DNA of 64,000 bases from Trichoplax sp. H2 (GCA_003344405.1 NOWV01000010.1:744001-808000); one strand, 5' to 3'; positions 8,744-54,722 are shown, counted from the stretch's first letter. Notes: generated from the sequence alone by a model not told the origin. Program-made: numbers and translations.

Positions 8744-9035
8744 CTCGGAGAGCTCCGAGAGTTTTTTTTTAGTATATGGGAAATTTTTTTTACTTAGTGG
8801 CTTTAGAGGGGGAGGGGGAGCTCTTAATTAATTAATTGAGTAGTCCCTCGGAGAGCTCCGAGAGGGGTAAGCAAAGGTTGGATATTATTCAAATGGTCCA
8901 TTTTTGTCATTTCCAGATGGGTGTCCGGCCGTCCGTTTTCAAGTGGCAGACATGGCCACTTGGTCAGTCTGTACTGTACAGTGTACAGTACCAGTCGATT
9001 ACTCAACAGTACTGTACACTGTAGACTAGCCAATC
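8744..9035. promoter_or_regulatory. Palindrome-rich promoter region upstream of FBXO25/32 (divergent to laminin)
   Basis: Twice CTCGGAGAGCTCCGAGAG; 15-bp inverted repeat 8977-8991/9009-9023; TAGCCAATC box near 9027; ~160 bp before the ATG. Confidence 0.55.
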
Positions 9036-9191
9036 TGTAAACAAAACAACTCCAAATCGTAGTAGTAGCACCAGTCCATCATCGTCAACAATTTTTTTCC
9101 TTTTAAAGTAGATTGCGGAAGAGCATTTTTGGATAGTCTGTTTTTCTTGACTTCTTGACAGATTTCATTGACAAAATTGGTAAAGACAAGC

Positions 9192-12100
9192 ATGGCTTAT
9201 GTTGGTGGTGCATGGCGTACATCAGGTTATGTTTGGCGAAAAACGGAGAACGGTTGGAAAACAGTCGATGCTACTCGTGTAACGATGACGTAAGTACTGT
9301 CGATCACAGAAAGATCCAAGATGGATTTACTCTCGACTCTATTTTCATCCACTATCTTCATCGTTTTCATCACAAATAGAGGATTTAGAAAAATGAAAAA
9401 GTACTCTGTTCTGTTGTTCTTACGATAGAGTTGTATTGGTACTTTAAACGATGAAACCCAATAAATAATAATATTACTTTACTATGCCGTGTTATTGCGC
9501 CAAATGAATCAATGGATTCGTTCTCCAAAGTAAGATAGTCAATCCATTCAGTCATGGTCCGACTCATGGACGAATAGAAATAGACTTGACTTTCTGTCCA
9601 TTCTACAGAACAGAATCTATTTCCCTAGATACTATATGGGTATTTTTAATGCTAGAAATGAAAAAGAAATGATGGAACGTAAATGAATTGAATAGAGCGA
9701 TCCATTATTTCCATACCAAGTTCCGATGGATCGCTCGCTATCTTACCGTCTTCGTAATATTATTATCATTTTTTAGCGATTGTTCACTTGAAATCGAATC
9801 GTAATTATCGCCCTACTGTAATACTATAGAATGGATCATTTCAAAGGGAAGTATACACACCGAATGAGTAATTCACATACGATTAAGAATGACTAAAAGG
9901 GATAAAACAACCTTGAACACTTCATTAAGAAATTGGACAGAAATAACATTATATAATACAATACAGCGTATTGATACATTCATAATAACGCATCCATACT
10001 ACAGTATATAGTGTACTGTATAGTTTCTTCTATCCAATGAAGTACACTGCATACTATATAGAAGAGACAGCATTAAAAGTCAATCCAACTGATTACTTTG
10101 AGGCTTTCTCGTTCAACATTGTAACTAGTAAATTAACTTCTATTCATAATTGAAAGTTGTACACCATGCTAAATATGAATTTTAAACGATAAGGCACATG
10201 GACTACTATCGCGGTAATTAAACTAATACTTACTAGCCGACAGTAGTAACGACCGCTGTCGTTAGAACTTGAAAAGACCACTCTACTCCCTCTAATAGAG
10301 TACTGTACATTCATCTTAATCACGAAATAATAATAAACCAATTAAAAGTGAATGACAGGGTGGTTTCGTCAAGAGGATACTTATATGGATCGTCATAGAT
10401 TGTCCTTAATGATAATGCATTATCCAAAAACGTACATTCCTATCTCACCCATAATTCAATTAAACTAGATTAAATTTAATTCAATTCTGATAAACGTAAT
10501 TCGTGTTTGCAATACAGGACTAAGTAACTTGGCTTTCAGTAGATAATTACAATCAATACAGCGCTATATATCCAACGATGAGAATAGCACAGACAGACAT
10601 ATTATGTCTCATCGATCATGATTTAGGATCATGAATAATAATGTTACGATAACAGATGATAACGGATTAAAAGCACCGGCTGTAAAAAAAATTGTACTGA
10701 CAATGCTACTTATAGTATACCAATATTCATTGATAAAATTATCATCAATTTAATACGATTAAACGATGATCATATAAGATTGCTATTCATTGTCTACAAC
10801 TCTTCCATACTGCTGTAAACGATATTCATATCTTTGCAAATATACGCGTATATTAAGAATGAATGATAATATACCCAGCTCGCGAAATCGGCCTCCTAGT
10901 ATGTTATATCGTCGAACCCATAATCTAAAATAGTCCAAAGATTTCTTGTACTGTTTCTCTATCAATTTATTAATAGTGACTATCATACGATTATTCTAAT
11001 GGCACAATGCAGTATTTGCTAAATAATATACTGATTCTTATAGCATCTCAGCAATAATATTTAGTTATAATACATACAGTACAATCACTTATTAATACTT
11101 TATTCAGTACAATACGCGTATCATATATCGTTTTTACAATAGTTCTAATCGAGATTTCACGTATACAGTAACTACAATTTTATGTCTGCCACAACTAGTG
11201 TTATAGCATTGATATCTTCTATCGTACGAGAAAGACTCTGCTTATTATCAATACTTTGTTATATAATTAGCGAATAAAACATCTATAACCGATTATAATG
11301 TTCAATCTTCTATCGACGGTCTCAGACCTCGCAATAATTAAGATATCTGCTAAAATTAATCGTAAAAAGTACGCCTAAATCTGAATTATTGATCCTTTTA
11401 TTAGCGTACTATCAATCGCATTAGTGAAAAGCTAATCAATATGTAAGATAGAAATTTCCATTCTGGTATGATGGATTTAACAAGTACCACAAGCTTACGT
11501 TACGTTATCATAGTATTCGTATTTTTGTTGAATATTGATAGTGGTAAAACACATCATTATCTTCATGCTCATCAAAGATATATCATATGCATTATTCTAT
11601 GTTATACAGAAACCCGAAAGAACAACCATCTTTACCAGCAAAAACTGGAAAGAATGAAAGTGATGGTAGGAATCCCAGTAATCTAATTATTTGATACATA
11701 CCGAATAATAACTACAATTTTTTTCTTAATGATATCTTTTTTCAAAGTAAATCAGCCCACCCGTTACATTTCAATTTTCAGAAATAGCCGAGAGGTTAGC
11801 AATAGCGCAGTAAGAATCATAAAATCGTGATCGCTATAGCATAATATGCACGAGTTATACAGACTGATATGATAGCACAGTAATTGTAGCTCTGTAAGGA
11901 AATACAGGATAACAAATATACTCTTAAAAGTCTAATTTCATAATAAGTAATTTAGGATAAAAGAAATGAGACTTGGCATTGCTTGATTCTCTCTTCCTTA
12001 TTTTAATCATAGCTCTCTTATTATCGTTCGCTTGGTGATGTCATGGACAAGTTAGATTTAAATGGAGCATTGCACGATTATAGTCGATTTCTATACGTCT

Positions 12101-14979: not shown

Positions 14980-17900
14980 TTACGAAGATTTAGAATCTCG
15001 ACGAATTTTCCTAAGGCTATAGCGATGTCTTCTGGAACCCTTATGAGCTAATAAATAAATTCATTGAATGAACATTTTATCGTGACAAGATAGTATAACA
15101 TGTATTAAATATATGATACACCTGCTCTAATTCTTATTCAAATACTGTACCTATCCAAGATTTCTCTCCTATTACAGTAACATTACATAAATCACACGTG
15201 AATCGTTGTAATCTGTTACTGATCTCCGAGTAACCTGTATATTTCCTTACTGGTGATTCTGTAGGTGTTTTACCCTATAAAAGAATTAATTCACATTCAG
15301 TAAGTATTGTTTGATAAGCAACAAATGCTTGATTGTAGCGTAACGTCTGTAGTTTATTCAAATAATAGAATGCAAATTGTACTTCGATCAGAGCTTTGGT
15401 AATAGAGACTGATCTCTCCAATATTTCAGATTTCAAACTATTAGGGGTAACATCAAATGAATAAATTGCTGGTACATTATCGGATGGTCCTAAAGATATT
15501 AATTCAAATAAAAAATATTTTTCACTTAAAAAAATTTCATCGATTATAATTATAAACTATAAAGTAATTACCTAACATAATCTTTTTACAGTATATAAGT
15601 ACAGTAGCTACATCATGAACAACTTTGTTATTAAAGTCTAGAATATACTAACTTCTATAAAATCGATTTTCTATCCATTTTCTCTAAAATGAAATTGATA
15701 CGCGAGATTATATTTTCAATTCCAAAAAAATACTTTGTAACGGACCGACTTCGCATAAACACATGTATGCCTGCTTATATTATATCTGTCATATATACGA
15801 ATTTTAAATTATTTTATATAAATTAGAGCATTACCTGAATCTTTGAGTACCGCTTAGTTGCTTGTTTAAACATTAAGATACATTCATCCAATACTTTCCG
15901 GTGGGGATTATTATGGTCTGTTGTTACAATATTTATCACTAACCGTACTTTGATACACATACATATAATCACTACTATATGGTATAGGTAATGCGATTTT
16001 CAACCAATGATATTTTCTTAGAATACAGCTTAAGGTGTGGTCAAAAATTGCAATAAATCGACGCCTTAACAAGCCAACAAACCTTTTGTATCTAAAGAGC
16101 ATTCTTCTTTTTCTATAAGTTGAAGGTATGGCATAAACTGTTTAAAGCCGATACTTTGATATAAGCCTATTTCAGTGTTGACCGGCCTAGCGTAAAGGTA
16201 AAAGTAAAATAGCAATATCAGTTGTAGCGAAATATCTGCCATATAAGTTATCAACACAAATGAACTTGTTACTATACGTATTTGGGATATAGTGTGAAAT
16301 ACTACATATCGTATAATGTAATACAGGACATAGGTCAACATCATTCAAAATAGTAGCACAATGTAAGCTAGGTACTGCTAGTCAGAAAGTGAAATAATCA
16401 ATGAAACCCACACATAACAACTTAATTAATTATAACACCAGCGCTTACGATCTGCTGAATATAATTATCGTTACTTACCTACTGCCCGAATGTACTTGCC
16501 AATCCTGATAAAAAGTATACAGTTCCCGTAGAAGGCCTTTTTCAATCATTTCATCACATCTCGCATCTAATTTTTGATCTAAAACTAACAGGATTGATGA
16601 ATGACAAGCCTCAAGTTTGCTTTCATAGAATCTAGTTTAATATAGAAGTAAGTATCTGAAGAGATCAACATGAATCACAGCTGAATTATAATGCGTATCT
16701 ATACGAAGTTCTGCATATGGCTATCAGACAATACCAGTTAGATCACTTTTAATATTTGCATATTACCATTTTGATCGCATTCCAATAAAAATATAGCAGC
16801 AGATGAAAATCTTAACGGTCCTGAATAGAAACTTCCACCAGGTTGTTGTCGCTGACGTTCTATGTAGCTACTATGTTTGACTTGATTCCTTTTTATAATT
16901 TCTAAACTTCTATTGTTACATTAAGAAGATTCAGCACATACTGTGGTTTACAATATCTTAATAGATTCACCAATATTGGACAGAAAGTTTCTATCAGTTA
17001 TACATCAATGTTCGTACCGTAAAATTTTTCTAGTGTCATTTGGATGTAACATTGCAGCTCTTTCAGGATCTAATAATTTCAATTCTTCGTACGAGTTTGC
17101 AGATTTTTTTTCGGTATCATCAGATAAAGGTTTATTTTGATAATCATTGGCATTAGTTTCATCTGCTGATATATTCTCCTTAAAAGCCAGTTATGGAGAT
17201 CGTACAGTAAACAGTTACTGGTAATATACATAATTCGAGTGTTTATATTACGCGTATTTATCGATTTTCCCGATTGTGAATCTGAAGCATTTTAAATCTA
17301 TTAAATCTAATACTTTCTACTGTGTATATTATGGTATTACATATACAGTATAAGTATATATATATAAACATCTAAAAGCGAAAAGTTACTTCAATAGATC
17401 ACTTACTTCCTTTATTAAATAATCCCACAATAATGCTTCGATATAATAATTAGTACCACCAACCACTATGGGCAATTTTTGACGCTTCATTATATCTTCA
17501 ATATATTAATAGTAAAGGAAATGTCCGCAGGGGTATAAAACTAAGATTAATGATTGCAGTGATCATGAGGTCCATGAAATTAAGAAATGTAATCGTTTAT
17601 ATTATTTCGGTAGCTTGTTCAGTAATATTAATCAAACAATAATAAAACAATTTATCTTAGGCCTATATACAGTGGTATTTAATATAAGAGAGGTCGAGAA
17701 ATTTTACTACAATTGAGAAAGACTACAGTAACAATAACTTTAAAGATAATAACTATGTGTATGATTTCTTCTTTACATGCATAAACAAAAAACTAACATG
17801 TGCACAAGTATAATCAAGTAAAGGATATAATAGGGAGTGTTTTATCCCTAAATGAGACTACTGTAGAATATTCCGTTGGATGAATGTAGTCCATGCAGTG

Positions 17901-19040
17901 ATGATTACATAACATTCTATCTTCTTTGCTAACTTTATTCGTAAGAATATCCAATCCCTGATAAACCTATAAATAAGAGAAAAATTTTGTCACTTGTTAG
18001 GTTGTTGCTGAATATTATTATTAGTAAGTAAAGATAATTTTTAGCGCTTAATTGAGATTTTTAGTTGCCAAACACGGTAGTAGGCTTAGGGTTACTTGAA
18101 GAACTTCTGAAGACATGTAAGCACGTTCTTACATTCGTACTCGTTAACTGTACTGCACCTTAGAGTTGTGTGAAATACTAGTTTACTACATAAGTACAAA
18201 ATGAAAAACTGTAAATGTCACATTCTAAAATAACGTACGTCTTGCAATGGTTTAATACAAGACGATAGAGTGATAGAGTACTTCTTGAATTAGTCGCCAA
18301 GATCTAAACTAGACAGTACAATAAGTACACCTGTTTACTGTAGCCAGATACTCGTCAAGTATCATACGTATATATATATTTATGTCATACACAATTTCAA
18401 CTGTAAATTGAGCACAGCTGCTGGATTACTCAATCCTAGGATATAGTCGTCTGTGGTACAGTATCATCATCTCAAATATCATGTAAACAGCAAAAAAAAG
18501 ATGTAAAAGCTGACCGATTACAGCGATTTAAAAGTAGCTAAGATACAAATGTTTCATATTTTGTTCTAGCAATGGATGTATGCTTTGATTTAAGCCATTA
18601 ATTAACTAATTCGACAAGAGATTTGTTTAGTGCAATACTGTCCAAGTTTGGTGTTATCCGTTTTCAAATGCAATTCCTTTAGACTCAATATACTTGCTAT
18701 TCATTGACATCGACGAATTGTACTCCATACCATTACACTATCATATGGAAGATAGACTAATCAAAGAGTATCAATCTTTTAATTCCAGTATCGTATTCCT
18801 ATAAAGAACTGTTTATTATTTTCAATTCACTATCGATTAATAATCTTTCACTGAGAATAAAATGTACGTAGTTACTATAACCTGCATCGAATCTGCACTA
18901 ATAATCTCTCCATTTAGTTCACAGGCTAGCTTTAAACCCAGAGAGGATTTGCCAGTGCCAGTAGCTCCCATAATGAATATTATAGGCCTACGAGTAGACA
19001 ATATTTTGCATGTATTGCTCATTCCTCTGCGTAATAACAT
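14980..19040 (-). CDS. TRIT1: tRNA isopentenyltransferase (tRNA dimethylallyltransferase)
   Basis: Exon 18882-19040 has the P-loop GATGTGKS...[10 protein letters not shown]. Exon 17829-17966 reads [11 protein letters not shown]; exon 17407-17502 reads [17 protein letters not shown]. Later motifs: [17 protein letters not shown] and a C-terminal C2H2 finger CDLC...HKGSRRH. Stop 14980-14982. Confidence 0.95.
17503..17828 (-). other. U12-type (minor spliceosome) intron in TRIT1
   Basis: Donor ATATCCTTT directly after codon ATT (..KTLPI). Branch-site-like TTCCTTTAC lies 9 nt before the exon starting IEDIMK. An in-frame stop follows the donor before any GT. Confidence 0.88.
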
Positions 19041-22000
19041 CAAGGGACGCAAAATTTCAATTTGCTTCGCGTTGATTTGATTGATAATAATGAATTCTCT
19101 TCGTATTTCAACTCTTCATGAGTCGGATACAAGATGATTTAGTGGTATAATATCGTGTTGAGGAAGCTCAGCAGTCTCGGCTTGACATAGGAAGGAAATT
19201 AGTTCACGACTTCAGTACTCGTATATCTCATTTTGCAGCAGTTGCTTACTGTAAATGTTTCTAGTTACTCTAGACTGAGTTTTACATTGCGCATGTTTCA
19301 CTATGCGTAGTATAGTACTGTATCACCAGTACAATACACTACCGTACAGCAATGTACAATACAAATCTCTGCGACTTTGGATTGGATTTATTGCACCTAT
19401 TCGCTTGAAGAGAATGAATAAAATGGTTGGCTACATAGCGGACAGGAAATAACCCTTTACTAAAATGACTAGGCCGACTATTCTACTGATCATTTGAAGT
19501 ATATGATATGTCTGCAGCCGTACACCGTACTGTCTAAGGTTATCTGAATAAGCGGCTAGGTTAATGTGCACCTTAGTTTGTACCGTGCACAGTTTCAATG
19601 AGACAATATAGGAAAATGGCCAGAATAGGACTGTCATAAAACTATCAGTCCGTTCTGTTAAGTTCTCAAGTTTCCTTTTTTATTTCGTTAACCCAATTTG
19701 AAGTATACTATCACCACATGCATCAACAACATACCATGAAGAAACTATAATGACTGAACTACATCTACCTTCAAATAAACATCGTGCTGTCAGAATGAGA
19801 GTTTTGATAATATTAATTCATATTATATTCAGTCATGGACTTCGAAGTGGAAATTCTCGGTAAGAAGTTGATGCAATATATACTGGAACATAAATACGCT
19901 AACATTTCATCACTGCAAGCATAAAATACTGTACACTTTATAATCACATCCATACTTGAGATTATAAACTGCACGGATATCATGCTAAATATATTTTTTA
20001 TTATCACATAATCCAATGAGTATATTATAATACGTCTCTGAGCTTTCTGCTAAAGCATCAATTTATAGTAATACTTAGGCTAAAATCGTGCTATGCTAAA
20101 GTCTTGCTATATTTGATGAGTACCTATGTATTATATAGTATAACATACATTAATACGATGAAAAAATTTTTCCTTCAAGTGTAAAAATAATACTTCGGCT
20201 AATTTCACCTAACGATTAACAATTCGATTACCTTTACCAGTAACTAAGAAGCAATATCAGTTTAGTTAGGTTAGCATTATCCAATTCGAGATTAGAAACG
20301 CTATCATTATTTATCCAGTATTATCAGACATAAAAAGACCTTGCAGACCAGATAGGAAAAAAAGCTACAGAGTATTCCTCAAACAGGACAATGAAATATA
20401 GCAGCGAAATAGCTGCACCAAAGTATTTCCCTTCTAGAATTAGTGGTCGGTATACGCGTCTAGGTATATATCCGTTTAACTATCTGTATATTAAACTATC
20501 TCGATTTTAATGTTACAGATTAATAACGAAGATTGTAGTGCCGTAAGAAATTTAAATGAAATGAAATGCTCTCTGTCATTTATTAATTTATCCCGTTATA
20601 AGTTCAAAATCGTCATGACGTTCATTTGGTGGTATCATACAGTTAATCTTTATCTTGGTACGTGTAAGCCAACAAATCGTTCTACAACTCTATAGCTAAA
20701 ACTACTGGTATCAAGATCACCTATCTGAAAAGAAGCGTTAGCAATGATTCCATTTTCAATTAATATAAATTTAATTCAGCTCGATATTTCATTCTCTGTA
20801 TCATAAATTAACAAATTCAAAAAGGACTAGGTATTGCGTGATGCTATTTCAAAACTGCAATATATAAATGCTTTTATCATGCAGCTATTCAACCTCAGAT
20901 TGGTGAATTTATCGGAGACTTAAGAATTTTTTAGAGTATAGAAAGAGATACATAGCTTAATACCGATAATAAATTTTCCAGCTTCAGATTACCGGTACAC
21001 ATCAACATCTCTCAATTGCTTATTTTGAAAATTGAAATGAACTTCTAATCTCTTGTAGTAGCTTCAATACTTCGATTCCAGTTAATAATGATGTACTACA
21101 AACTAGTAAGTATTAATAACCCGCATACCCTATACTGTAAGCCTATTCGCATTGCATAAACTTGAAAATGTAAATATATATATCTATATTATTTAAGGAA
21201 GACATAGAATGACGATTTTCCTATGATCACACCATTTTAAGTAAAGCTATTCTCATAAATAAATTAACTATCTATACAAAATCTTACTTAAACTATCCTA
21301 ATAATATCATATGACTCAAAACGAATTTAATGTACGAAACATACGTTTATAGTATGTGCAACAAGTTGAGAACTTAAACCAATAACATGTTATTTTAAGA
21401 GATTATAGAGCTTTGAATTGTTTTTGTCATATTTAGAAAGAGATTATAGGATTGTTGCAATAGCAATACAGTTCATTTAGTTTATCAAGAAGAAAACCTC
21501 TGCAATTAATATGCTTCTATGCTATCACCAGTTTTAAATACATTTAACTTTATAGAGTTACTATTCTCTTAATTCAATATGTATCTTCCTGAGGTCGTAA
21601 TTGCGTCCTAGGCAAATTTTTGGAATCATAAAATTTTTGTTTAATAGATGCTACATCTATGTAAGTGCGCTATTAAAAATTTAACTATCCAAGTTACCAA
21701 TATATCAGTCAAGATAGAATAATTTCTAAAATTTTGTAGCACTACAGACCATTGTTCATATATAAGAAATTATTATGACCTCAACTGTTTCATGTATGCC
21801 GCACAAATAATATATATTTATATATTATCCTCATAGTTTATAATGACATCCTAGTTCAACTTATGTAGCAATGTACGCAGTATAAAAAATTAACGACAGT
21901 TATTATTGTAAGTACCCGTATTTTACCTAGTAAATATATTAAATTAATTTTCTGTTAGTAATATATGTATGCGTGTTACGGATTTGCTTTCCGTAAATAA

Positions 22001-30369: not shown

Positions 30370-30646
30370 TATTGATTGACGTGGTAAATGGAATGAATAC
30401 TGTCAATGACTCTGCGTGAGCCTGGTTGCCATAGTTATACAAATATTCTATTACGTGATTGGCTATTCGTAATCCATAAGTACGATGATTACACATTCTT
30501 TCGCTCCTTTTCCCGTACCTCCAGTCGGTAGCAAGATAGAACGTCTGCCGGCGTTTGTTACGTTTGTGACAGTCGCGATCCTTTTTAAAGACGCTTTTCT
30601 TCCTCTGCACAGTTTGCAGTCCTGGCTATTAATCCTTCTCCAGAAG
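30370..30646 (+). promoter_or_regulatory. Putative Myc promoter and non-coding first exon
   Basis: An acceptor (..atatag| at 31226) 10 nt before the ATG implies an upstream exon. Candidate donor AAG|GTACAT at 30647. Reverse CCAAT (ATTGG 30458-30462) and TGACGT near 30377; locally higher GC. Confidence 0.45.
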
Positions 30647-38300: not shown

Positions 38301-39180
38301 TAGTAATGGTTAAAAGAAAGAATCAATTCGAAATCAGCTGAAATGAATTTATAGTACGTGTAGAAGGTGATTGAATCTTAAATAGATTAACTGATAGACT
38401 TTAAAGTATACAGTACATTTCTCGTTAATAGTTAAGATGAACGACCCAGGTAAGACTTAATGTTACCTTAGCCACTGATCGTCTAGTAGATGTTCAGCTC
38501 GAGTCATTTAAACTTACAAATGATTATGTAATCTTGCTGCTATACTTTCGGTCAATTAAAATATCAATAGCTAGCCAATTTAAAAGATGAAGCACTCCCT
38601 AGATGGCAGGGTAGAAGTGTTAGCAGCGGATCAGTCTAATATAACTGATAGGTTCTGCTTGGCATTTAACTAAAAACGAACTATTATATCATGTTAACTC
38701 TGAATTAAATGTTTACAATTATATTAACGACAACTTTATATTAGAATCATTAAATACTTTTAATATTTCTGAAAAACAACGTGACAATGTGAAATACAGA
38801 CTTAAATTTAAACACCGTCTGACGAATTATTTCTAGATTAGAACAGAAACTCATAAGGTAGTTGCATGTCGCAGCGGAAGCTCTCATTACTTCTGATCCA
38901 CTATGTTTATGTACAGTATACAGTAATTTAACAATGCAGTACTTGCGTACAAAACTGTACTACTTTGTTCTCTCATCAAATACTGTAAACCAGCAAGAAA
39001 TTACAACTTGAAATAGTACCAAACGATAATACATCAATGAGAATATGATATTATTACAATTATTTACGAACAATACATAAGATCAAAAGGATAAAATAGT
39101 AGAAGTCAGCTGAATAGCTAACTGATTCTAGGTTCTATAACATTGATAACACCTCGCTAACTAATACCAATAATTACTAC

Positions 39181-42022: not shown

Positions 42023-42125
42023 CTTGGAAGTTAAGAACGACGTACAAGCAATACACTGCCGCAAAAGGGATTCAATCACCGTGACTAAGGTCGTTTGTTG
42101 CATTGAGCATGAGCAGACCAGGCTC

Positions 42126-42989
42126 AAGTGCCTAACTACGAGCTACTGTACTGTACTGTCGAGTGAAGCTATCTACAGTACGACTCCTGTAGAGTACGGT
42201 ACTTAGTACGGTGCTGTTGGTGGAAAAGCTTACAACTGTACAGTACTGTACTGCAGTCTACACTGTAGTACATTAATACAATATTAGGTAAAAGTGGCTC
42301 CATTAACCTCATTTTAATCAATTCAATTAAAAGGCCAAGTTATTCAGTTTTCTATTCGTATAATTTTTATTACATTTTGATTGACTCTCGTCATTTTAGG
42401 GCACCTTAAAGTACTGTACGTACTGTACGGGAAGAAAGAAAAAAGATTTTACAGTACTATACTTACAGTGTACAGTACCCTACAGCGGCTCACAACTACT
42501 GTAGACAGTGGATTCTCCTTTTCGTAGACACGATTCATTTCAAGTCCCAGTCTGAAACGCTCTGATCCGTGCCGTCCGTGATCCATACCAGCCGTCAGCC
42601 AGTTCAAGAACTTTGTACTGTACGGTAAGTGCCTAGCTACTGTACTGTACTGTACTGTACTACTGTCGGGTGAAGCTATCTACAGTACCGCTCCCATCGA
42701 GTACAGTACTTAGTACGGTACTGTCGGTAGAAAAGCTTACAACTGTACAGTACAGTACTGTACAGTACTGTAGTACGGGAAGAAAGAAAAAAGATGTTAC
42801 AGTACTATGCTTACAGTGTACAGTACCCTACGGTGGCTCACAACTACTGTAGACCGTGGATTCTGCTTTTCGCAGACACGATTCATTTCCAGTCCCAGTC
42901 TGAAGCGTTCTGATCCGTAACGTTCCGATCCGTGCCGTCCGTGACCCGAACAAGCCGTCAGCCAGTTCGAGAACTTTGTACTGTACGGT
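42126..42989. repeat. Tandem duplication (copy 1 42126-42626, copy 2 42627-42989) in the PSMB2/ArfGAP1 divergent intergenic region
   Basis: Both copies start AAGTGCCTA, share blocks such as GTGAAGCTATCTACAGTAC, GGGAAGAAAGAAAAAAGAT and AGACACGATTCATTTC, and end GAACTTTGTACTGTACGGT. Copy 1 has an extra ~150 bp AT-rich segment. Confidence 0.93.
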
Positions 42990-43355
42990 ATCATACTGTA
43001 TGCAGATGGATGGTTTGACAGTATGGTACTGTACAGTACCAGCAGTCAAGGATTATGTCACAAGCTACTGCAACGAAGGGAACCGTAAGTCATCTGTCGC
43101 AGACGATCAATTCATTGAATAAAATCGCTCACCATTTTCGGATTTTTCATTGATTTTGCAATCATTTCATAGTTTCATAATTGTTACTATTGCATTTCCT
43201 CATCTACAACCAAGCAAACTCGACAACAAACGAGACTATCTGTTGTAATTAAGAGAAAGACAGAAGGAGTTGAGACTAGTTCTTGCAGGCCTTTTTAACA
43301 GCAACGAACCTATTAGTTTGGTTAAGCAGCAGCAGCCACTTTAGCACTATTTTTA

Positions 43356-46300
43356 ATGGCTAGTCCTCGAACACAGCGACTTTTAAGAGAATTACGCTTT
43401 AAAGATGATAACAATGTAAGTATTATAGCACTACTTGACACAACTACTTTGTACGACAGTTTCAATGATAGAGTTGCTGTATTTTTTCACTCATGGACAG
43501 ACCAAAGTCGATTTTGATCTTACGATTCCATAGTCACGATGAGGAAAGGTACGATGCTGCTCTACAGTACTGTATAGAGTACAGGTGACTAGCACCGACC
43601 TTGATTCTCCTTAAACTATTTATTTTTAGACACGCTGTTATCATTGAAGTTACATTATAGGATATTTGTAATCTCTATGACTAGTTTTCATTTATACCCT
43701 TTAGTGAGCTTGAGCGACAAATTAAAAAAAATTTCAAATTACATAGTGAACAATCGTTGTGGTCAATCTAGAGTACCGTAGTCGTCAGTCACAGACTTGT
43801 CATATCTTCAAGCCAATAATACTGTATAGTATAATGAATACTAACCATTGCAATACTTCGACATTACTAAACTGGATTTTCGATCGATCTGTATGTACTC
43901 GCATGATCGATGCTATACTTTGTATAAGAGTATGGTAGCACTGTATACCATATTGATCTGTAACTACTTCAAGTTTATTTTAACTTGAACCTTCACTATA
44001 AATATCCAGGACAATGTTGGTTAACAAACTTTCCATCGCTGACAGATGATACGATACTGCTGTTGTTTAGAATTTTAAATTTCAGTTCATCAGAGGGTAT
44101 AATAACTTTTACATTAATAACCTGAGCCTTAATCCTCTTTATCATCAAGTTAGTTATTGAATGACTTCAGTTAAGTATTCAATCATTTTTAAGTAAGACT
44201 GATGGGCGCTCTCGGATAACGATTAAATCTGACGCTTATCGCTTATACTGTAGGCTACTAGAAGTGTTAACGTACTACTTTATTGTACTATACAGTACAC
44301 CATATACATCAAAATCGCGAAATTGGTATCTACAATACTGTACTGTACTATCAGACAGTAACGTAAAGTTTACTACTTCAATCATAATTAATCCGATACT
44401 TGTAGAAATGCTCACGTTCCTCCTCATCACTACATCACTACATACCATATAATCATATAATGATGCTCCATTAATGCATCAGCAAATTAATTTAATTTAA
44501 TTTATTTAATCTGTCTTGCTATTGGTCTGTGTACATTTGCATAATTTAATTCCCGCGATACCTTATTCATTAATAGACATGTACTTGAGGTAACAAGGTA
44601 GTAATGTAAATATTATATATGAACATTAATTACAAAGTGGCTCGTAAATCTTCTCAAGATCTGCTTCAATATTACAAATGAAAATGCCGGATATACAATG
44701 GATATACAATATATGTAATACGTACGCAGTGTAGCCAGATTAGATAATTTTATACTACGAGTATACGCATATAAGTAAGGTACATTGGTATTCGCTTTCG
44801 TATGTTATATCAGCTACCTGATCATCGGTTGTAGTAATAATTTATTTGAAACGTAGCCATTTCTTCTTCCACACATATAGCTCAACTAACTTTATGGTGA
44901 TAACGATAGCTCTACCTGTATTATTCACTTTATCGTTCAGTCATACAGAAATTTGTAAATTTTTCTTTTCATTACTTGGATGTGATGAAGCAGCGATGAT
45001 GTAATCGATTTGTCCCGTGATTGACCATTGCATCTTAGCAATTGATATTAACATCCAATGAATAACGTAAATAATGTGTTTTCTTTCTTTTTGCATAGCT
45101 ATGTTTCGAATGCGGTGCTCACAGTCCTCAATGGGCCTCCGTTAGTTATGGCACATGGATCTGTTTAGAATGCTCTGGTAAACATCGAGGTCTTGGTGTT
45201 CATATCAGGTTCGATCTCAAGTTATCTTTACAATTGATAATTATTGACTTTCTACGACAGCTACAACTCTTTGCTACGTAAAAATTTTAGAAACGAAATT
45301 CTATTTAGCCAGTATGCTTACAATTTTGCTACCATCTTAAAGTTTTAAAATTAAATTTATTGCATCCATTAAAGTACTGTTTACATTATATAATATTCAT
45401 TTCTTAGGAAACGATAATTATATCTGTCTTGATAATTTATTGCACCAAATATCAAACTTCTGGAGCTCAATGGAACAATATTGTCATTACTCTCAATAGC
45501 TATATTTAGAATTGAGCATGATTAGCTAATTGCTAAGAAATTTAACAAATACTTAATTACGTATGCATATCGAATAGATATAGTTCAGTGACTATTTATA
45601 ATATTATCATCACAGAAAATAGATAAAAAGCATAAATATTATGTGTACCGATATTTCCAAGCAATGTGTACACTCTAATTCAAGCTGTTGCATTTTATTA
45701 CTTTCTTACTTCGCAATATCATAGTTAAAGAGAATATCTTATCCTATAATGCGAATCTTGAATTCATGTACAACTAACTTATTCGTAAATCAACTAGAAA
45801 TTTTTGCCATAAAAAATTAGTGAGCGTTATACCTATTAGTGTCAACAACGATCTGCAAAAGGATCATTTATTGAAATTGTTTGTCTCTTCTACACATTTT
45901 AGTTTTGTAAGATCAACTTCCATGGACAAGTGGAAGGATAAAGAATTAGCAAAGATGAGGGTAAGCTCACCATGTTTTGATAAATAATAGACTAATTCAT
46001 TAATACTAAAGTAGTAATTGTGATTAATACAATATTTTGTCACTCATAATAATATTGGATACTCGATACTGCTTTACTAAACAAACACGTCGTTTTTGGC
46101 TGCAACCATAAATAGTATTTAGATTTTGTATCGTTTTATTAATTTTAGTAATTGATATTCTAAAAAGCTATAAGAATTATTAAGATATCGTTCTAAATAA
46201 ATAAATCTTTTTAATGATCGTTTCGAAAGCACTTTAACATCGTCGTAATTATTAATACATAAGAGTGCCAATAGTCTACTCCCATTCCATGTATATATAG

Positions 46301-47641
46301 CAACCGTCACAGCTGATATTAGACCGTATTACCACAGTTCATTGTAAGAAATGGTATATCTGTAAAGAGCTACGACAAATAGTAGCTCAATGATATTTAC
46401 TTATAAATACAATTTCGCAGTTAAACATTTTAACTTATCTATTAATTGAGATTTTTTTCGGTTAATTTCGTAAAATTATCATATATTCAAATATATAAAA
46501 GACTGGCGGAAACCGACAAGCCAAGGAATTTTTTAAATCTCAGGGTGATATTTATGATGGAATCAATATAAAAGAAAAATACCAATCTAGGACAGCTGCA
46601 CTATATCGTGATAAGATCGCTACTTTAGCAGATGGTCGTACTTGGTCAATGGAAGCTTCACCTGCGTTTAATTATGAACCACCGAAAGAGACAGCATCTA
46701 TTGATCCTAGGCTAGGTATCTCGAATGAAGAAATTGCTAATAAACGTGACGATTTCTTTCGCAGAAAGCAAGAAGAAAACTCTCAAAAATCAAATGATCT
46801 ACCACCTAGCCAAGGAGGACGTTACGTCGGATTTGGATCTAAAAAGGAGGTTCCCAACAACGCTAATAAAAACGAATTTATAGATAACGCTTGGTCAAGT
46901 TTTTCATCGGGCTGGACCTCATTTACTGCAGGAGCTTCTAAATTTGGTGGTGTTGTACAAGATCAAGCTGTAAAGTTTGGCTCATCTATCAATGATAGCG
47001 TTTTCAAACCTGTTGGTGAGAAAGCTAAGGAATTTGGGACAACTTTCGATCAAACTGTAGTCAAACCAACCAAGCAAAAGATTAATGATTCTAAAATACT
47101 CGACAATATGTCAACATCTATGACTACATTTGCAACAAAAATAAAAACTGCTGGCGAAAGTGGAATGACTGAAATACAAACTTTAATGAAGGGGAAACAA
47201 AGGGAAGAAGTAAATACTGAGGGAATGGACAACGATCATGATCCATATGATGATGATGTCTTGACAGAGGAAACGAAAAATTTTAGTATTGAAGACGATG
47301 GAGGCGATGAATGGAACTCTTGGGGTAAATATGACGGCTGGGGACAGCCTAATTCTGAAAATAAGCAGTATTCATCAAAATTTGACGTACAAACTTCAGA
47401 TCAACCTGATACAAAAGCTACTCATACATCGACGAAAAAGGTACAAGCAGATAGTGAGTGGAATGAGTTTGTGATAGGATCTAGATCTACGGCTAAGCAA
47501 ACTGACGCTAAAGATAAGAAGGATGATAATAGTGGCTGGAATGATGATTGGGATGCAATGCTAAATTCGGATACCGACGTTAGTAGTGCTGGTATGAAAT
47601 TAAAAACTGATACGAAAGTAGTTTCAAAAAAATCAGAATAG
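43356..47641 (+). CDS. ARFGAP1: ADP-ribosylation factor GTPase-activating protein 1; exons ~43356-43415, 45099-45208, 45903-45960, 46502-47641
   Basis: [14 protein letters not shown]; Zn finger [57 protein letters not shown]-like [20 protein letters not shown]; acidic Trp motifs in the tail. Confidence 0.96.
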
Positions 47642-49656
47642 GCATAATTCTATAGCTAAATGTAGCTATATAAGCAATGATGATTGATGAAAGTATATTT
47701 TAACTCGCATTGCTGCTTTATAAGCCGGATATAGTTCTGTATTAATATTATATTTTTTCGATAGAAGAGAATTTATCTTTACACTCTATGCTAAACGTAT
47801 TTAGTTAAAGTGTACTTATTGACCCTATTTACAGCTGTGATCAAATATCATACTTTTACCATCAAATACACTACAATAACTTTACTTTTATTGGCTTAAA
47901 TGGAAATGCCGTCAAATGAAATTAATCATGAAATGCCTAAATGTCTTTCATCAATTAATATATATGTATGTACTCATTAATTGATCATTAATTGATTTCT
48001 GAAATAATTGATAAACTGAATTATGAATTAGAATTTGGTGTAATATTATAGATATCAAACTAGATAAGGTAGATTCTTACGAGATACCGCTAGTTATTAT
48101 CACCATTATTTGGGTATAAATGTAACCCTGGCTTTTTAAAATTGCTTAAAGTGGGCATTGTCAGATGACAGGTTTGATCAATGCTGTAATAGCCACGCTC
48201 TGAGAGTTATCATTTGATATGGTATACTTGTTCTATATTCTCTAATGAAATTACTGGAATCTGGATACTCGTTTATTAAATTTGGTTAGAGAATATAGAT
48301 TTACTACGTTTTATAACCTCGATACTATAGAACCGACGAAGCTTGCTTATCCAATACAGTAGGGCAAGTATAGGACAATTATGTTAACATAGAATTAAAG
48401 TACAGTTTCAATTGACATAGAAGCAAAATTGGATTAAAAATTTTAAAATTTTACACTATTGTCTTGTGTGGTATTATCCGTATTGTAGTTGTGTATCGTA
48501 CGCGCTGAAGTAGCGAAACTTATTCAAATAGTTCTTACGTTCAAATTTTCAGCAAGAATAATCGATATACGACATAGATTTTGGTAATAGTAATCACGAC
48601 TTATATAACATTTTTGCTTATGATTATATTTGGAATTAAAATCGCATATTTTATTGCTCGGAAATATGTAGTCAAAAAATTGAAGATTATTTCGTAACTT
48701 ATAGCACTTAATGTGATTGATTGCATAACGAATTTACGTGTCGCGCAAGCGTAAGTGCAATAAATCGCTATTCGGTATATATCAATCATCAGATACAGCA
48801 GTTCTGCGTAGTCTTTATTCTATCAAATCGATTAAATTTTAATACAAACTACAGCAGATGACTACATTTTATAATTTCAGACGCTTATATTAGTTTAAAT
48901 TGGAATAGAGAAAATTTACTTTAAACGTTCTTTATTTACAGTTTGCTTAAAACGTTAAAAATTTCAGAAAAGCTATGTTATATGAGTATTTTGTATTAAG
49001 TTGCGATGACAGTGTATATATATTCTACGCAGTAGTACAATAAGCTACACTTTTCAAGCAGATTAAGTAGCAACAGCAAGTCGATCGATCAGAAGATTAA
49101 CTTATATAAATCTTGTACTAACTGTACTGATAGAAAACATAGTTCCAGCATTAACTCTATCACTGGATGACTTTCTACAGTGCTTTCATTAATTAAAGTT
49201 CACGGTACAGCAGTTATTAGAAATTAATGTCGTTAATTCACAAACCAATTAGAAACATATCAGAAATTTAGCTATATAAACAAATTATTTTCAAAATTTG
49301 TAGTTAAAATGTTTATATTGATTTTTGCTTATTAATATTAAAAACATTCTAAGTATCAAATTCTGAAATGACACAAATAATATGTTGATATTAAAGCTGT
49401 TGAAGTCTTTGAAGGTAAATAATTAACATTATAATCACCTTAATACCACAACACGATGGCAAAATACTACGATAGATGCAACCGTAGAAATGGGCTATTT
49501 TATGATGTTTGCGTATGGAAAATATTAAATTTTCTGCATGTGATTACGGATAATAATCTCTTATCTACAGCCTTTTTTGTCATTATTTTTGCAGTATTTT
49601 CTTATCCTAACTTCGATATTTTACCATATCTAATTGCACTGAAATATTTTATTCTT

Positions 49657-52600
49657 TTACCAATAAAACGATTTACTGATAAAACTAGTAACACTACTAA
49701 TCCAACCATTGCCATTTCCGTTGTTATCATCAATTCGTGCGACGGCTCCCTGTAAATATTAAGCAACAAGTTTATATTTATACTTCAAAAATATAGATCA
49801 TTATTATTAAGCTACAATGGTACACTTATTTGATAATTTGACTAAATACTACTTACATGTTATAAAAAATTTATCGATAGATATATTCATTTACACTAAC
49901 GTAACTCTTCTCTAATTATAATACGTATAACGTTTATTTACCTTTTGTATTGTTGTACTATCATCATCTTCTGGTAAATAATCTGGCATAGCATTCTATA
50001 CGATTAAAACAGAAACCTTAGAGTGCCGTCATGACTACTGTCATTAAATAAATAAAGATAATTATATTTAACAGTAAATTCAAGAAGCTAAGAAGACTCA
50101 TAATGTTTAAATGCAAATACGGCTAGCCTTACAAGAAGTAAAGGACTATACTAACAAATTATGCTCTTAATCTAGTCTTAAAGACTTGTCATTATAACTA
50201 CTTGCCTCCTTATCTTCTGATGAGGAAACAGGGCTGCTTCCAAAGGTTAAAAATATCTAATCGCAAAAAGGCAATTTAATCATCTATTAAAGTACTGACG
50301 GTGACGGTGAATCTTAAAATTTAGGCAAAAACTAGTAATAGCTATTGCATGCTACTAATGCTATACGCGTACATCTGTCTAGTATACAATAAAAAAAGGG
50401 TAATTGCATCAAAGGTAGACGCTAATACTAATATATAACACCAACAATCTTTTACCTCTTCTCCCATGTCATTTTTGACAATTTGTTGCGCCGTCATGGT
50501 CTTAGTTTCAGCAACAGCTTGGCATATTGTCTTAAATTATAAATAAGAAATAGTATGCTTATAATTGCTAGAACCTATAGTGGGAACTTTAGAATATCGT
50601 TAATGACTCTAACAGTATACTATAAAAATCTATATTGACAGTATTTGAAGAATATTTATCAATTAAAAATAATGTCAGTTGATAAAGTTTTACCTAACGA
50701 TGTACTAGCAACTGTAAAAAATAAAAAGCAATTTATGAAAATTTGCTAAGACTACAATTACAGACTATTAAACTGGCTGACTTTTGCAATTTAATAGTGT
50801 TATAGTTACGATAACTTAGCTTACCTCTATTTTAAGGTTTGGACGAGCTCGTAAGATGCAGCGTTTTTTGACTAAATCAAAAGTAAAACTTACTACTCCA
50901 GGAGTAGCAAGCAATCTCTGTTCACATTTAAATCTGCTAGCACTATCAGTTAAGCCAGAAATTTGCAATATTATTGTTCGTGCATTTTTATTTGCATTGC
51001 TTAGAAAATACTGTCCAGAAGTGGCACCGGCCCTACGACTGCGAGTATTCCTAAAATAAAGTATCAATATTTGTATAAAGAACAGTTAGAGCATCACTTA
51101 TATTCCATTTTTATTTATATTATTTTAAAATATGATTATAGTGTAATATATCTCGTAGACAAGTAATTGTTAAAGTAATCATTTCTACACTAGTCATATT
51201 AAACATAGCAGTAAAATTTCGATAACATAATGTAATATTGACCATACCTAGTGGTTGGGACTAATGTAGTATGAATTTCGCTAGCAAGCTGGCAAGCTTT
51301 CTGATCTTTGCTATAGATTTGATATTAATCACAAATTAAGAAGCATGTTATAAACAATTTTATTCAAAGTAAACCATATTAGCTTGTCAGAATATATCAA
51401 TGACTAAAGTACATCTTATCTGATGGATTTATATTATAATTGCCTCTAATTTACTATGTACAATATTTGTTTTGATTAAAAGATCGAGAAGAAAATACTT
51501 GATATGCTATTTCAGTTTTGTAATATTATAATCAGTTAAATCGCAATAGCAGAAAGAATTTATCTGTTTAAATTATGCCAATATAGGGCATCTTACTACT
51601 ATTTTATCCTACTTTAAGGAATGTTTGTTTGGTATTGGTTATCGTTCGGCAGTATATTATAATTTTATTTTTAATTCACACAACAACTGCAATTGAATGT
51701 TAGGCAGATATTAAGTGTACTCAAAATATTTCAAGTTCATGAAATATTTTAAATTGAAAAGGTTACTTTATTGGATACTTGCTACCACTGGGAATTGAAA
51801 AGTTAAAAAATTACAGTTGGATTCTAACATATCCTTGAATAATATCTCATATTACAAATAGTACGGGTATATAGATAAGGGTTGCAGGAGGTAGCAATAC
51901 TTGACAGCAAATTCTTACCTATTCATAATAGCTTTCAAGCTAACCAACATACCAATTTCACTTCTCATAGGAGTACGGTTAGATGGACATAGTGATAGAT
52001 AACGTAGTGCCTTCAATTTTAAATAAAGCATCCTTAGTGGATAATAATACTAGACGTCTATGGTTATACGTAGATTGTTGCAATTTAACCACTTAAGAGT
52101 ATAGTTTAGTACACCAAATTACTGAGGAGATATTGTGTAATAACGTAGACGTATCGTATTTTGTAAAAGAGTTATTATCACAAGATAAACAGATGAATTG
52201 AAACTCTTTAATAAACTGACCTACTGAAAGCAAAATTTCAAGTTTTTTACCATCATACATGTACGTTACAATACCCACCTCTAACGCCAATACTACTACA
52301 CGAGGATCATCGTTATCTAGAAATAAAACCAATCCTGGAAGGCATCCCTGATCCTAAATGCACGTAAATAATAAAAATAGTTCAAGTTGCATCAGTTAAG
52401 TCATTTTATAATTGAAAGAAAAATTTAAATTAGCATTGTTGATGTAACGAGTAAGTCATTTCAATCACTTGAAATCGCACAGGAATGTCGAGGATAAGAA
52501 CTGTAAGATAGTATTTGTATTTTTGATAGCAGCTACGCGACATCCGCGTGGCCTCCCATCATAACAGCATTCAACATGGGCAATTTGAAAGAGTAATAAC

Positions 52601-53453
52601 TGGGGTTATAGTCAATAACTTTACGTATTGCTCAATAGAGGGTGATAAAATTGAAACGAGTTAATATGCAGTATGGGAGCATGCAATGAGTACTATCTGG
52701 TTGTTACCATACAGTAGGAATTGATTACATTCGGGATTGATGAAGTTGCACGCAGGACTATGATGGATAAATGTAATTATTATTATTATTATTATTATTC
52801 AATGACATATTTAGTAATCCATGATAGTCTACTAACTATATGTACATTGGTGATTTTCGCTAGTAAATACTGTAAGAAGAGTTACAGACTCAAATCTTGA
52901 CACCTATAATACTCGCATAATTCTGACCTAATGGAAAATACTTCATGATATATGGGTATTCTACTGTGTAAGTATATGATATCTATATGTCTACTTGTAC
53001 AGTATGGTATATGCAGTATATGCAGTGTAGAGTGTTGACTATCCTCTGAATCAAATATCGCTGATTTACTTTAGAAGGAAAACTAATACAATTTTTACTT
53101 TGTTGTACATGTCCACAAGGCTGATGAATCTTAGCAGTATCCTACTACAAGCAATTTATAAAATATCGAGTAAAGTCTCTGCGGTGCTGGAGGACAGAAT
53201 ATACAGTTTCCTGTAGAGTATATCATTTTCAGAACGATTTGAATCATGACGAAACTCATGGACATCCTTTGTACCATAACATTGTATTGAACGGATTGAA
53301 TAAACTATTACAGAAACTATTTCTGGCATTATTTTTCAATATTGGTTCAATGGATACATTGTCAATGGTGAGTTTTACCTTTACAATTGCAACACGATTT
53401 TGCGGTTGTATTGCTAAATCTCGTAAATTTTTAGCCACAGTATATGCAGACAT
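49657..53453 (-). CDS. ARMC1: Armadillo repeat-containing protein 1
   Basis: MSAYTVAKNLRDLAIQPQNRVAIVK|DQGCLPGLVLFLDNDDPRVV, NRTPMRSEIGMLVSL, HMA-like ARTIILQISGL...PGVVSFTF, PDYLPEDD, C-terminus SFISKSFYW*. Confidence 0.94.
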
Positions 53454-53934
53454 GTTACTCCCACTTTGTTAATTTCCAATTTTTGAACTATCCAGTAGAA
53501 AATGCAGCGGATCCAGTCCAATACACGATAAAATAAGTCTTGATATTACAAGGTGAATAAAATAGATGATGTTTCCCTACTTGTCCCTTTCTACATTAAA
53601 GAAAAGAAATGATCGAGAGGAAAAGTTGAAATGCACATGAGAAGAACTTGAGGCAATTGGTGTATTGGTGGCAGGAGTCCAACGTAAACGGCGATGGAAA
53701 TTTCAAATTTTGGCACGTCCTGCTGTCTACAGTGGATAGTATCGTAAGGGATGAACTTTGTACCACTGTCTACAGTACAGTACAGTACAGTATGGGATTG
53801 TACACTGTAGCCTTACATCTCCTCTCTCTTCTATGGTACAGTATGAGTTGACTGAGGATCAAAGTGTGCGCGAGCTCAAGTCGTGTATTGTGTCGACTGT
53901 CCAGAGTCGAAAATTTGAAAGCCATCTAGCTTGT

Positions 53935-54484
53935 CTGATTGGCTCTAAATTAACGGTCGCTTTGATACAATAGCAAAAACAGCCAATCAGCGGATCCGCA
54001 GCAGATAGTCCTTTACAGTGTACAGTACAGCACAGTACAGTACAGTACGGTAAAGGTTTGCATTGTACTGTACTCTACTGTACTCTACTGTACAGTACAG
54101 TATAACGGCAAGATGGAGTAGTCCAGAACTTGCGTATTCTGTGCAAAATAACTGGCCACCCTTGATCGTCATCTTGACTACAGCGAGAGTACAGTACTCA
54201 TTACACTACAGCGCGTACTAGCCAATCCATGACAACTTATTTTGCACACGAGTACCGTAATACTGTACTGTAATGCCAGGTACTGTACATCGTCCATAAC
54301 TGGCGTCTTCTGTGCAAAGTGAGTTGTCACCCTTGATCGTCATCTTGACTACAACGACACTACAGTACTCATTATACTACAGCGCGTACTAGCCAATCCA
54401 TGACAACTTGTTTTGCACATGAGTACCCCAAGACTGTACTGTAATGCCGAGTACTGTACATTGTACACTCGCGGATATTTTGAA
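53935..54484. promoter_or_regulatory. Bidirectional promoter with four CCAAT boxes and a CDE/CHR-like element
   Basis: CTGATTGGCT (53935-53944) and its exact reverse complement AGCCAATCAG (53981-53990); CCAAT at 54222 and 54393; CGCGG-ATAT-TTTGAA at 54470-54484. Confidence 0.6.
54121..54462. repeat. Two tandem 171-bp units (54121-54291, 54292-54462) in the ARMC1/MTFR divergent promoter
   Basis: Shared CACCCTTGATCGTCATCTTGACTACA and ACTACAGCGCGTACTAGCCAATCCATGACAACTT at an exact 171-bp offset. Confidence 0.93.
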
Positions 54485-54722
54485 TTGTGCAAGATTCAAA
54501 CTGTTGCCAGCTCGCAATTGGAAAATTTCTCGTCTTGGCCATCATTTTTCGCCCCATTTCTTCCTTCTGTTGATAAAAAGAGCTCGATAAGACGATTAGT
54601 AAGATTTTTAGTCCATGCAATACGAACACTACTACAATCTTCTAGTGTGTAGTAGCCAATAAATTACTATTCTCCATTTTATTTGTCAATTTGATTGGGT
54701 CAAAATTCATGCTTACATCAAA

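Follow-up and report, generated by a model that had tools for sequence, protein, structure and literature searches.

Most placozoan genes are regulated from compact proximal promoters, and these promoters take part in thousands of promoter-promoter contacts; to our knowledge, neither an architectural factor nor a site to which one binds has been identified for them. Here we describe a 5-bp repeat, (ACAGT)n and its complement (ACTGT)n, in a stretch of 64,000 nucleotides from Trichoplax sp. H2 (GCA_003344405.1, NOWV01000010.1:744001-808000; hereafter the window), in which a first-pass annotation had picked out a recurrent 15-mer as a promoter signature. All of our own counts and statistics refer to this window. 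For the question of what builds placozoan promoter hubs, an obvious candidate is a 5-bp repeat that stands at housekeeping promoters and accounts for roughly half of all microsatellites.

The closest described system is the (ACAGT)n microsatellite family of Trichoplax adhaerens. According to the accessible parts of Wang, Zhang, Meyer and Bao (2010; Biol Direct 5:18; PMC2871265), ACAGT accounts for 5,624 of the 11,697 genomic microsatellites (48%), with pentanucleotides making up 61.8% of microsatellites and 78% of the pentanucleotides being ACAGT. The upstream distance between ACAGT loci and the nearest gene was <1 kb for 54% and <5 kb for 85% of the loci, ribosomal-protein and kinase genes were enriched near them, and a transcription-factor site was proposed. 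Since 14 of 887 microsatellites in expressed sequence tags (ESTs) were ACAGT (1.6%), most arrays are not part of mature mRNA. The repeat returned in the Chimaera network applied to T. adhaerens Micro-C data (Nucleic Acids Research, 2026; PMC12817080), whose accessible text reports repeating ACGG and ACAGT motifs and changes in the predicted maps when the motifs found were inserted, and equates ACGG with the insulation motif that Kim et al. described as borne by transposons. That study (Kim et al., 2025; Nature; PMC12221973) described, in the portion available, promoter hubs of placozoan housekeeping genes, and Mutator elements inserted in the promoters of such genes; the loop-anchor motif lies within the terminal inverted repeat of these elements, and its letters are given in figures only. 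In the literature collection searched, no other paper on the repeat in Trichoplax came up, and a search with a 9-mer by itself returned only primers and papers on miR-101.

The element in the window is this placozoan (ACAGT)n microsatellite family, known since 2010 and re-noticed in 2026, and the first-pass view that it is not a described element had to be abandoned. Its lineage-specificity and its association with promoters were both borne out: the window is of placozoan origin (an exon of 380 residues at 46499-47638 matches the NCBI-named ArfGAP1 of Trichoplax sp. H2 with 100% identity), runs pile up in its two bidirectional housekeeping promoters, and the same association was published genome-wide for T. 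adhaerens (Wang et al., 2010). With repeat and upstream bias both in print since 2010, the present sighting adds no new phenomenon. What the window adds is locus detail, namely the positions of runs relative to RNA-supported exons and the free mixing of their orientations, together with CCAAT and ACGG-type neighbours, whole-unit differences among strains, and a sharper description of the unit as (GTACW)n, with W standing for A or T.

The exact 15-mer occurs at 8977, 34740, 42464, 42812 and 54014 on the plus strand and at 9009 on the minus strand, six copies where 100 dinucleotide-preserving shuffles gave an expectation of 0.00. Allowing up to two mismatches resulted in 18 matches versus 0.16 expected, including the sites at 34192 and 35180 with one mismatch each; all of the copies and near-matches reported in the first pass were thus recovered, and every copy does lie inside TACAG/CTGTA runs with GTAC cores. 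The copies at 42464 and 42812 count as one event, since both fall within one local tandem duplication (42407-42627 versus 42751-42990, 85% identity). The DNA around the copies consists of interrupted 5-bp repeats of (ACAGT)n and its complement (ACTGT)n, and the 15-mer itself is such a run with one 7-bp step, a form as frequent as perfect 15-mers (six each) and found at four loci (clusters A, D, F and H; Table 1). A 20-nt imperfect run stretch, GTGTACAGTACAGCACAGTA, is common to two loci (34192-34211 and 54016-54035), for which chance, conversion and preference for one variant are all conceivable reasons.

The same words dominate the window as a whole. Its four commonest 8-mers are GTACAGTA in first place (46 copies), TACTGTAC (42), TACAGTAC (41) and GTACTGTA (40), and GTAC was observed 408 times versus approximately 192 expected from base composition. 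Pairs of GTAC at distances of 5, 10, 15, 20 and 25 bp number 59, 27, 21, 17 and 15, respectively, and 96 of the 169 TACAGTA/TACTGTA sites are grouped in 14 clusters. Additionally, Tandem Repeats Finder (TRF) returned six period-5 arrays, in which tandem ACAGT/ACTGT of at least three units is present; the runs are short and decayed, with 70-89% matches in four of the six.

With respect to genes, the 600-bp zones upstream of eight gene starts, which make up 7.0% of the window, hold 36 of the 129 runs, a number reached in 10 of 5000 circular shifts. The zones of ArfGAP1 (12 runs), PSMB2 (9), ARMC1 (8) and MTFR (6) account for the enrichment; that of the FBXO-like gene has 3. RNA contigs from three spliced RNA runs were compared with 34550-54549, and in the 16 kb annotated in this way 49 of 66 sites fell within two bidirectional promoters (13% of the length), while 4 were exonic, all in 3' untranslated regions (UTRs), and none was in coding sequence, in agreement with the earlier remark that runs avoid coding exons. 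The nearest run is 93 bp from PSMB2, 50 bp from ArfGAP1 and 88 bp from ARMC1, as measured to the 5' ends of the RNA contigs, and 266 bp from the MTFR ATG. The arrays are concentrated where broadly expressed genes share a bidirectional promoter, in gaps the size of a nucleosome that directly precede the transcribed part; there they adjoin CCAAT boxes and ACGG-type repeats, and they are largely missing from coding sequence. The four well-placed genes do not agree in the orientation of their nearest run (read in the sense of the gene, it is ACTGT for ARMC1 on the minus strand and MTFR on the plus strand, and ACAGT for PSMB2 on the minus strand), and the distance of the runs to RNA contig ends or ATGs ranges from 50 to 266 bp, unlike a core promoter element with its fixed position and orientation.

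Other parts of the proposed placement fared less evenly. Of the three head-to-head pairs named in the first-pass annotation, PSMB2/ArfGAP1 and the ARMC1 side of ARMC1/MTFR are supported by RNA contigs, with the MTFR start read from the sequence. At laminin/FBXO, the cluster at 8972-9016 lies 177 bp upstream of a putative ATG exon, read from the sequence, with the laminin ATG some 2.55 kb away, and the F-box label of the gene starting at 9193 was not confirmed by Pfam. The looser clusters claimed upstream of TRIT1 and Myc proved weak (8.7 pentamers per kb, from 2 in 231 bp, versus a window mean of 5.6 per kb) and modest (6 in 401 bp), respectively. Clusters A, F and H lie within about 1 kb upstream of a gene; those at 26785, 34087-35272, 38912 and 44246 do not. 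Taken together, the association is genuine for promoters of the housekeeping type, and the runs are not a general promoter mark: they pile up at two bidirectional housekeeping promoters, the start regions of laminin and Myc carry 2 and 0 sites, and the dense cluster at 34-35 kb has no supported gene start.

Both promoters have counterparts in T. adhaerens. The locus table of PMC2871265, in the rows available, lists for scaffold_7 two runs near PSMB2, at distances of 144 and 705 bp, and three near an armadillo-repeat gene, at 328.5, 587 and 631.5 bp, with PDE7A next. These runs are colinear with the window and, since their offsets to 42144 and 53771 agree within 74 bp over 11.6 kb, they are orthologues of clusters F and H, with F1 corresponding to the 144-bp run, F2 to that at 705, H1 to that at 328.5 and H2 to those at 587 and 631.5. 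No counterpart of the imperfect clusters at 8972-9016 and 34581-34768 was found in the rows of that table between scaffold_7 1249203 and 1310258.

Inspection of the arrays showed that the unit is better written as a palindromic GTAC core every 5 bp with A or T between, (GTACW)n. Where two GTAC cores follow each other at 5 bp, T separates them in 27 cases, A in 26, G in 4 and C in 2, and adjacent spacers pair freely (AA 4, TT 4, AT 4, TA 4). Because the real unit is a palindromic core plus a W spacer, a single A/T change reverses the apparent strand of a unit. Following GTAC[A/T], the next unit was identical in 22 cases and had the spacer flipped between A and T in 20, with all 12 possible one-base core changes together numbering 51. 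Flips are thus about as common as identical units, so that orientation is scrambled while core and spacing persist; moreover, the flip is approximately five times as frequent as the average one-base core change, which suggests that the GTAC core and its spacing are kept. Two causes are conceivable for a scrambled orientation with a persisting core: GTAC spacing is under constraint, or quasi-palindromes undergo templated mutation.

We propose, with belief and doubt evenly balanced, that the arrays serve as an orientation-independent, multi-copy platform for a putative factor with sequence specificity, or that they are stretches held clear of nucleosomes by such a factor. The putative factor would land on a multi-copy (GTACW)n array in either orientation or would keep the array stretch free of nucleosomes, thereby holding housekeeping promoters open. 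The arrays may in addition contribute to the insulation or the promoter-hub contacts seen in placozoan Micro-C maps, with replication slippage presumably continuing to alter the number of units. A more elaborate version, which we consider speculative and rather unlikely, is that the functional unit is the palindromic core and not a directional ACAGT microsatellite, and that a placozoan architectural protein reads the GTAC cores, repeated on alternate helix faces, in either orientation; together with the neighbouring ACGG-type, Mutator-repeat-like motif, the array would nucleate both the promoter hubs and the boundaries at housekeeping genes. A preferred variant of high affinity would then be the recurrent 15-mer with the 7-bp step, and array length, changing through slippage, would tune promoter openness.

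A number of observations weigh against a platform of this kind. We know of no protein that binds the arrays, the retention of the GTAC core beside a variable spacer being the one indirect hint of specific binding. The enrichment in the window is carried by the two bidirectional promoters PSMB2/ArfGAP1 and ARMC1/MTFR, with 93 of the 129 runs outside the upstream zones and with zones that are nearly empty at laminin (2 runs), TRIT1 (2) and Myc (0). At the second-densest cluster (23 sites over 34087-35272) no gene start is supported, no Pfam-bearing open reading frame (ORF) lies alongside and no RNA contig runs through the unique parts; further clusters lie within introns and a 3' UTR. The 5' ends of RNA contigs, to which most distances were measured, cannot fix the start of transcription. 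Many RNA contigs from other loci carry runs with unrelated flanks, some at a depth of 142-209, and some arrays elsewhere are consequently transcribed. Furthermore, array lengths vary by whole 5-bp units among strains, as in neutral microsatellites. One run (X18), which we take to be DNA-like, since it covers introns and none of the 15 joints listed for it is spliced, shows length differences from the window of +5 at 42173, 42993 and 43025 and of -15 at 54064. In the published survey, the figure of 85% within 5 kb is given without a background control for a genome of approximately 1 gene per 9 kb, and 15 runs of its table, as available, are 23-25 kb from any gene model (Wang et al., 2010).

Much of this would be expected if the arrays were a neutral by-product, in which a slippage-prone pentanucleotide has a preference for arising and expanding in open promoter DNA free of nucleosomes or is tolerated there and is purged from exons, with no role in transcription or chromatin. 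We regard this as the less probable account, yet one to be taken seriously. The length differences in whole units mean that the arrays behave as microsatellites, and a neutral repeat would be short and decayed, as the runs are; it would also occur within introns, a 3' UTR and gene-free DNA or, as in T. adhaerens, far from genes, and it would be copied passively by local tandem duplications. Three results are at odds with it, however. The dominance of one motif in T. adhaerens (78% of pentanucleotides and 48% of microsatellites in the available text of PMC2871265) is not predicted by a general slippage bias, spacer flips outnumber the average core change as described above, and the Micro-C sequence model found the motif independently (PMC12817080).

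Protein-independent DNA structure, through flexible TA/CA steps spaced 5 bp apart or through cruciform extrusion that excludes or positions nucleosomes, is an improbable explanation in our judgement. The 5-bp periodicity is indeed strict, as the GTAC pair counts show, and clusters of mixed orientation fold as single strands into long hairpins, with z-scores of -4.0 (8960-9035), -4.6 (34626-34775), -2.7 (42735-42780) and -3.0 (54010-54110); the hairpin of cluster A has a predicted energy of -17.1 kcal/mol, matched by none of 200 shuffles. However, hairpin potential arises automatically wherever the unit is mixed with its own reverse complement, and single-orientation arrays at the same promoters have none (z-scores of -0.2 and +0.6). 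A cruciform, which had been suggested at the outset, is therefore not the common denominator, even though the potential is real where orientations are mixed.

It is very unlikely that the runs are remnants of a promoter-targeting transposon, of the Mutator type or a miniature inverted-repeat transposable element (MITE), with the runs as part of the terminal repeats. This idea draws on the Mutator insertions and the loop-anchor motif in the terminal inverted repeat that Kim et al. (2025) report, in the accessible text, for placozoan housekeeping promoters, on ACGG-type repeats (the Kim motif according to the available text of PMC12817080) that adjoin runs at 8929, 42567 and 42930, and on cluster A, a small foldback with inverted arms of 14-19 bp. 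Against it, self-BLAST of the window resulted in run-to-run matches and two local tandem duplications only, among the 16 pairs listed, and when nine copies were aligned with 25-bp flanks, all 12 invariant columns lay inside the 15-mer and the flanks were unalignable. No target-site duplication was noted at the ends of cluster A by reading and without a formal test, the other loci have single copies, and the accessible parts of PMC2871265 count just six MuDR fragments genome-wide, with the runs behaving as microsatellites. With no sequence outside the runs common to the loci, a MITE family was rejected, and the suggestion of a domesticated MITE found no support.

Nor do the runs appear to be initiator-like CAGT arrays that set dispersed starts, or an RNA element of the 5' UTR, a highly improbable reading that appeals to the CAGT in each ACAGT unit (similar to what we take to be the fly initiator core) and to the runs inside RNA contigs of other loci, and that conflicts with the scarcity of ACAGT among EST microsatellites (1.6% versus 48% of genomic ones), with local RNA contigs that begin 50-93 bp downstream of the runs, and with a run orientation independent of gene direction, on which the initiator array was rejected. 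A spliced leader was rejected as well, the runs being genomic and next to genes, as was a known structured RNA or tRNA-derived repeat, for which the whole window gave no tRNA and no Rfam match at the gathering score.

The promoter regions that carry runs have further features in common. CCGT..CCGT (ACGG-type) repeats adjoin runs at 8929, 19518, 42567 and 42930 and were seen only in run-bearing promoter regions; by way of the assignment in the accessible text of PMC12817080, they may be the loop-anchor/Mutator-repeat motif of Kim et al. (2025). NF-Y-type CCAAT boxes are present at 53936, 53983 and 54692. The promoters have a G+C content of 0.41-0.44 versus 0.32 for the window. The observed/expected ratio of CpG is 0.60-0.89 in clusters A, F and H versus 0.98 window-wide, the latter value meaning that the window is without CpG depletion. 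The analogy with CpG islands raised in the first-pass annotation is accordingly functional at most, as there is no CpG excess (0.82-0.89 in these promoters versus 0.98).

Coordinates of clusters, arrays and genes are collected in Table 1. Most of the DNA between PSMB2 and ArfGAP1 is a tandem duplication with a unit of about 500 bp and 83-85% identity (42126-42627 versus 42627-42990), and the DNA-like run has an extra 16-nt ACGG-type copy of the CCGTGCCGTCCGT repeat inserted behind 42562. In the ARMC1/MTFR intergenic region, the 171-bp double unit looks like a duplicated promoter module. Each of its units contains an internal inverted repeat of about 14 nt and has no Rfam match. Next to cluster D, a possible short ATG exon at 34336 and an E2F-like site at 34238 (TTTTGGCGCGAAA, 34238-34250, which we take to be of the E2F type) are the only hints of a gene start. 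In the loose cluster upstream of Myc, a palindrome at 29115-29135 (GCATGCGC) is presumably NRF1-like.

Genes were confirmed by Pfam on stop-to-stop ORFs. For MTFR, the ATG at 54724 and intron 1 at 54778-55583 were read from the sequence, and the next exon matches the beginning of the Pfam domain. None of the 123 short ORFs of 19.3-31 kb and 32.6-38.8 kb matched Pfam, and these ORFs look non-coding; the approximately 11 kb upstream of Myc (19400-31000) hold no Pfam-matching ORF, an unusually long gene-free stretch for a compact genome. No RNA contig covered 35217-37884 in the three spliced RNA runs, which denotes a lack of gene support and not silence. A single RNA contig joins exons of ArfGAP1 (plus strand) to exons of ARMC1 (minus strand) over 46501-49748, and the two convergent genes consequently overlap or abut at their 3' ends.

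Table 1. Positions of run clusters, duplicated units, period-5 arrays and genes, counted from the first nucleotide of the window.
Feature	Position	Strand	Details
ACGG-type repeat, CCGT..CCGT	8929-8941	-	adjoins cluster A
Cluster A	8969-9026		inverted 15-mers 8977 (+) and 9009 (-); 14-19 bp inverted repeat; 177 bp upstream of inferred exon 9193-9289 (+)
4-site cluster	26785-26888		no recognisable gene in stretch
Loose clusters upstream of Myc	29023-30050		29023-29050, 29391-29595, 29931-30050; 1.2-2.2 kb from ATG 31237
Cluster D1	34086-34206		5 sites including near-match 34192
Cluster D2	34581-34775		15 sites within 188 bp, of mixed orientation; includes 15-mer 34740; no gene start supported nearby
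Cluster D3	35175-35273		3 sites including near-match 35180
3-site cluster in PSMB2 3' UTR	38912-38987		last exon 38739-39280
Local tandem duplication	42126-42990	+	contains runs; CCGTGCCGTCCGT repeat present twice (42567, 42930)
Cluster F1	42144-42251		(TACTG)n run and mixed units; starts 93 bp upstream of PSMB2 contig 5' end (42051)
Cluster F2	42411-43044		24 sites; 15-mers 42464, 42812; ends 50 bp upstream of ArfGAP1 contig start (43088)
4-site cluster in ArfGAP1 intron 1	44246-44348		intron 43416-45098
Cluster H1	53765-53843		perfect (TACAG)4.4; starts 88 bp upstream of ARMC1 contig 5' end (53683)
Cluster H2	54014-54102		15-mer 54014, then facing (GTACA)6.6 and (TGTAC)7.8 arrays; hairpin z-score -3.0
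171-bp unit, twice	54121-54467	+	88% identity; run fragments and CCAAT in each unit; ends ~260 bp upstream of MTFR ATG
3-site cluster in inferred MTFR intron 1	55370-55505		intron 54778-55583
TRF period-5 array	34629-34714		16.8 copies, 70%
TRF period-5 array	42638-42661		4.8 copies, 100%, perfect (TACTG)4.8
TRF period-5 array	42745-42772		5.6 copies, 86%
TRF period-5 array	53771-53792		4.4 copies, 100%, perfect (TACAG)4.4
TRF period-5 array	54020-54052		6.6 copies, 89%
TRF period-5 array	54064-54102		7.8 copies, 85%
Laminin	up to 6517	-	Pfam; ATG at 6418
FBXO-like gene, first coding exon	9193-9289	+	inferred: ATG, then GT donor
tRNA isopentenyltransferase (TRIT1)	16478-19115	-	Pfam
Myc	31096-32308	+	Pfam; ATG 31237
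Proteasome beta subunit (PSMB2)	exons 38739 to first exon 41932-42051	-	Pfam and RNA contigs; last exon 38739-39280
ArfGAP1	RNA contig start 43088	+	RNA contigs; intron 1 43416-45098
ARMC1	first exon ends 53683	-	RNA contigs
Mitochondrial fission regulator (MTFR)	exons 55583-55720, 56471-56713	+	Pfam
Phosphodiesterase	60841-62143	-	Pfam

Among known systems, the (ACAGT)n of T. adhaerens is the nearest to the arrays of the window, with the same unit, the same animal group, the same bias to positions upstream of genes and orthologous runs at PSMB2 and the armadillo-repeat gene. The runs catalogued there, as far as the accessible text goes, are at least 15 bp long and are read as one directional motif (Wang et al., 2010), whereas the arrays of the window are mostly shorter, mixed in orientation and better written as (GTACW)n. 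The repeating ACAGT of the Chimaera network shares the letters and the genus and likewise ties the repeat to chromatin-contact patterns; it differs in being model-derived and, in the available sections of that paper, comes without loci, mechanism or link to the 2010 study (PMC12817080). The loop-anchor motif of Kim et al. (2025) marks, in the portion available, promoters of broadly expressed placozoan genes, including those of Trichoplax sp. H2, and ACGG-type repeats stand next to runs in three promoter regions here; unlike the arrays, that motif is an ACGG repeat (according to the accessible text of PMC12817080) and not ACAGT, and no transposon structure was found at the runs of the window.

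More distant comparisons are with elements of other animals. CpG islands are also a sequence signature of housekeeping promoters, and the promoters of the window are G+C-rich; the arrays, however, are a specific word and not a composition, and have no CpG excess. At Drosophila promoters, (GA)n elements are bound by GAF or CLAMP. These GAGA elements resemble the arrays as a promoter-clustered short tandem repeat that occurs in either orientation and is thought to clear nucleosomes and to aid insulation, but their letters are unrelated and their binders are known, and we use them as a working analogy that implies no homology. The heat-shock element consists of 5-bp nGAAn modules in alternating orientation with a trimeric binder, and in its modular 5-bp unit, both orientations and variable number it parallels the (GTACW)n arrays. 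It has another core, however, and is inducible and specific to a class of genes, whereas the arrays of the window are far more numerous and stand at housekeeping promoters.

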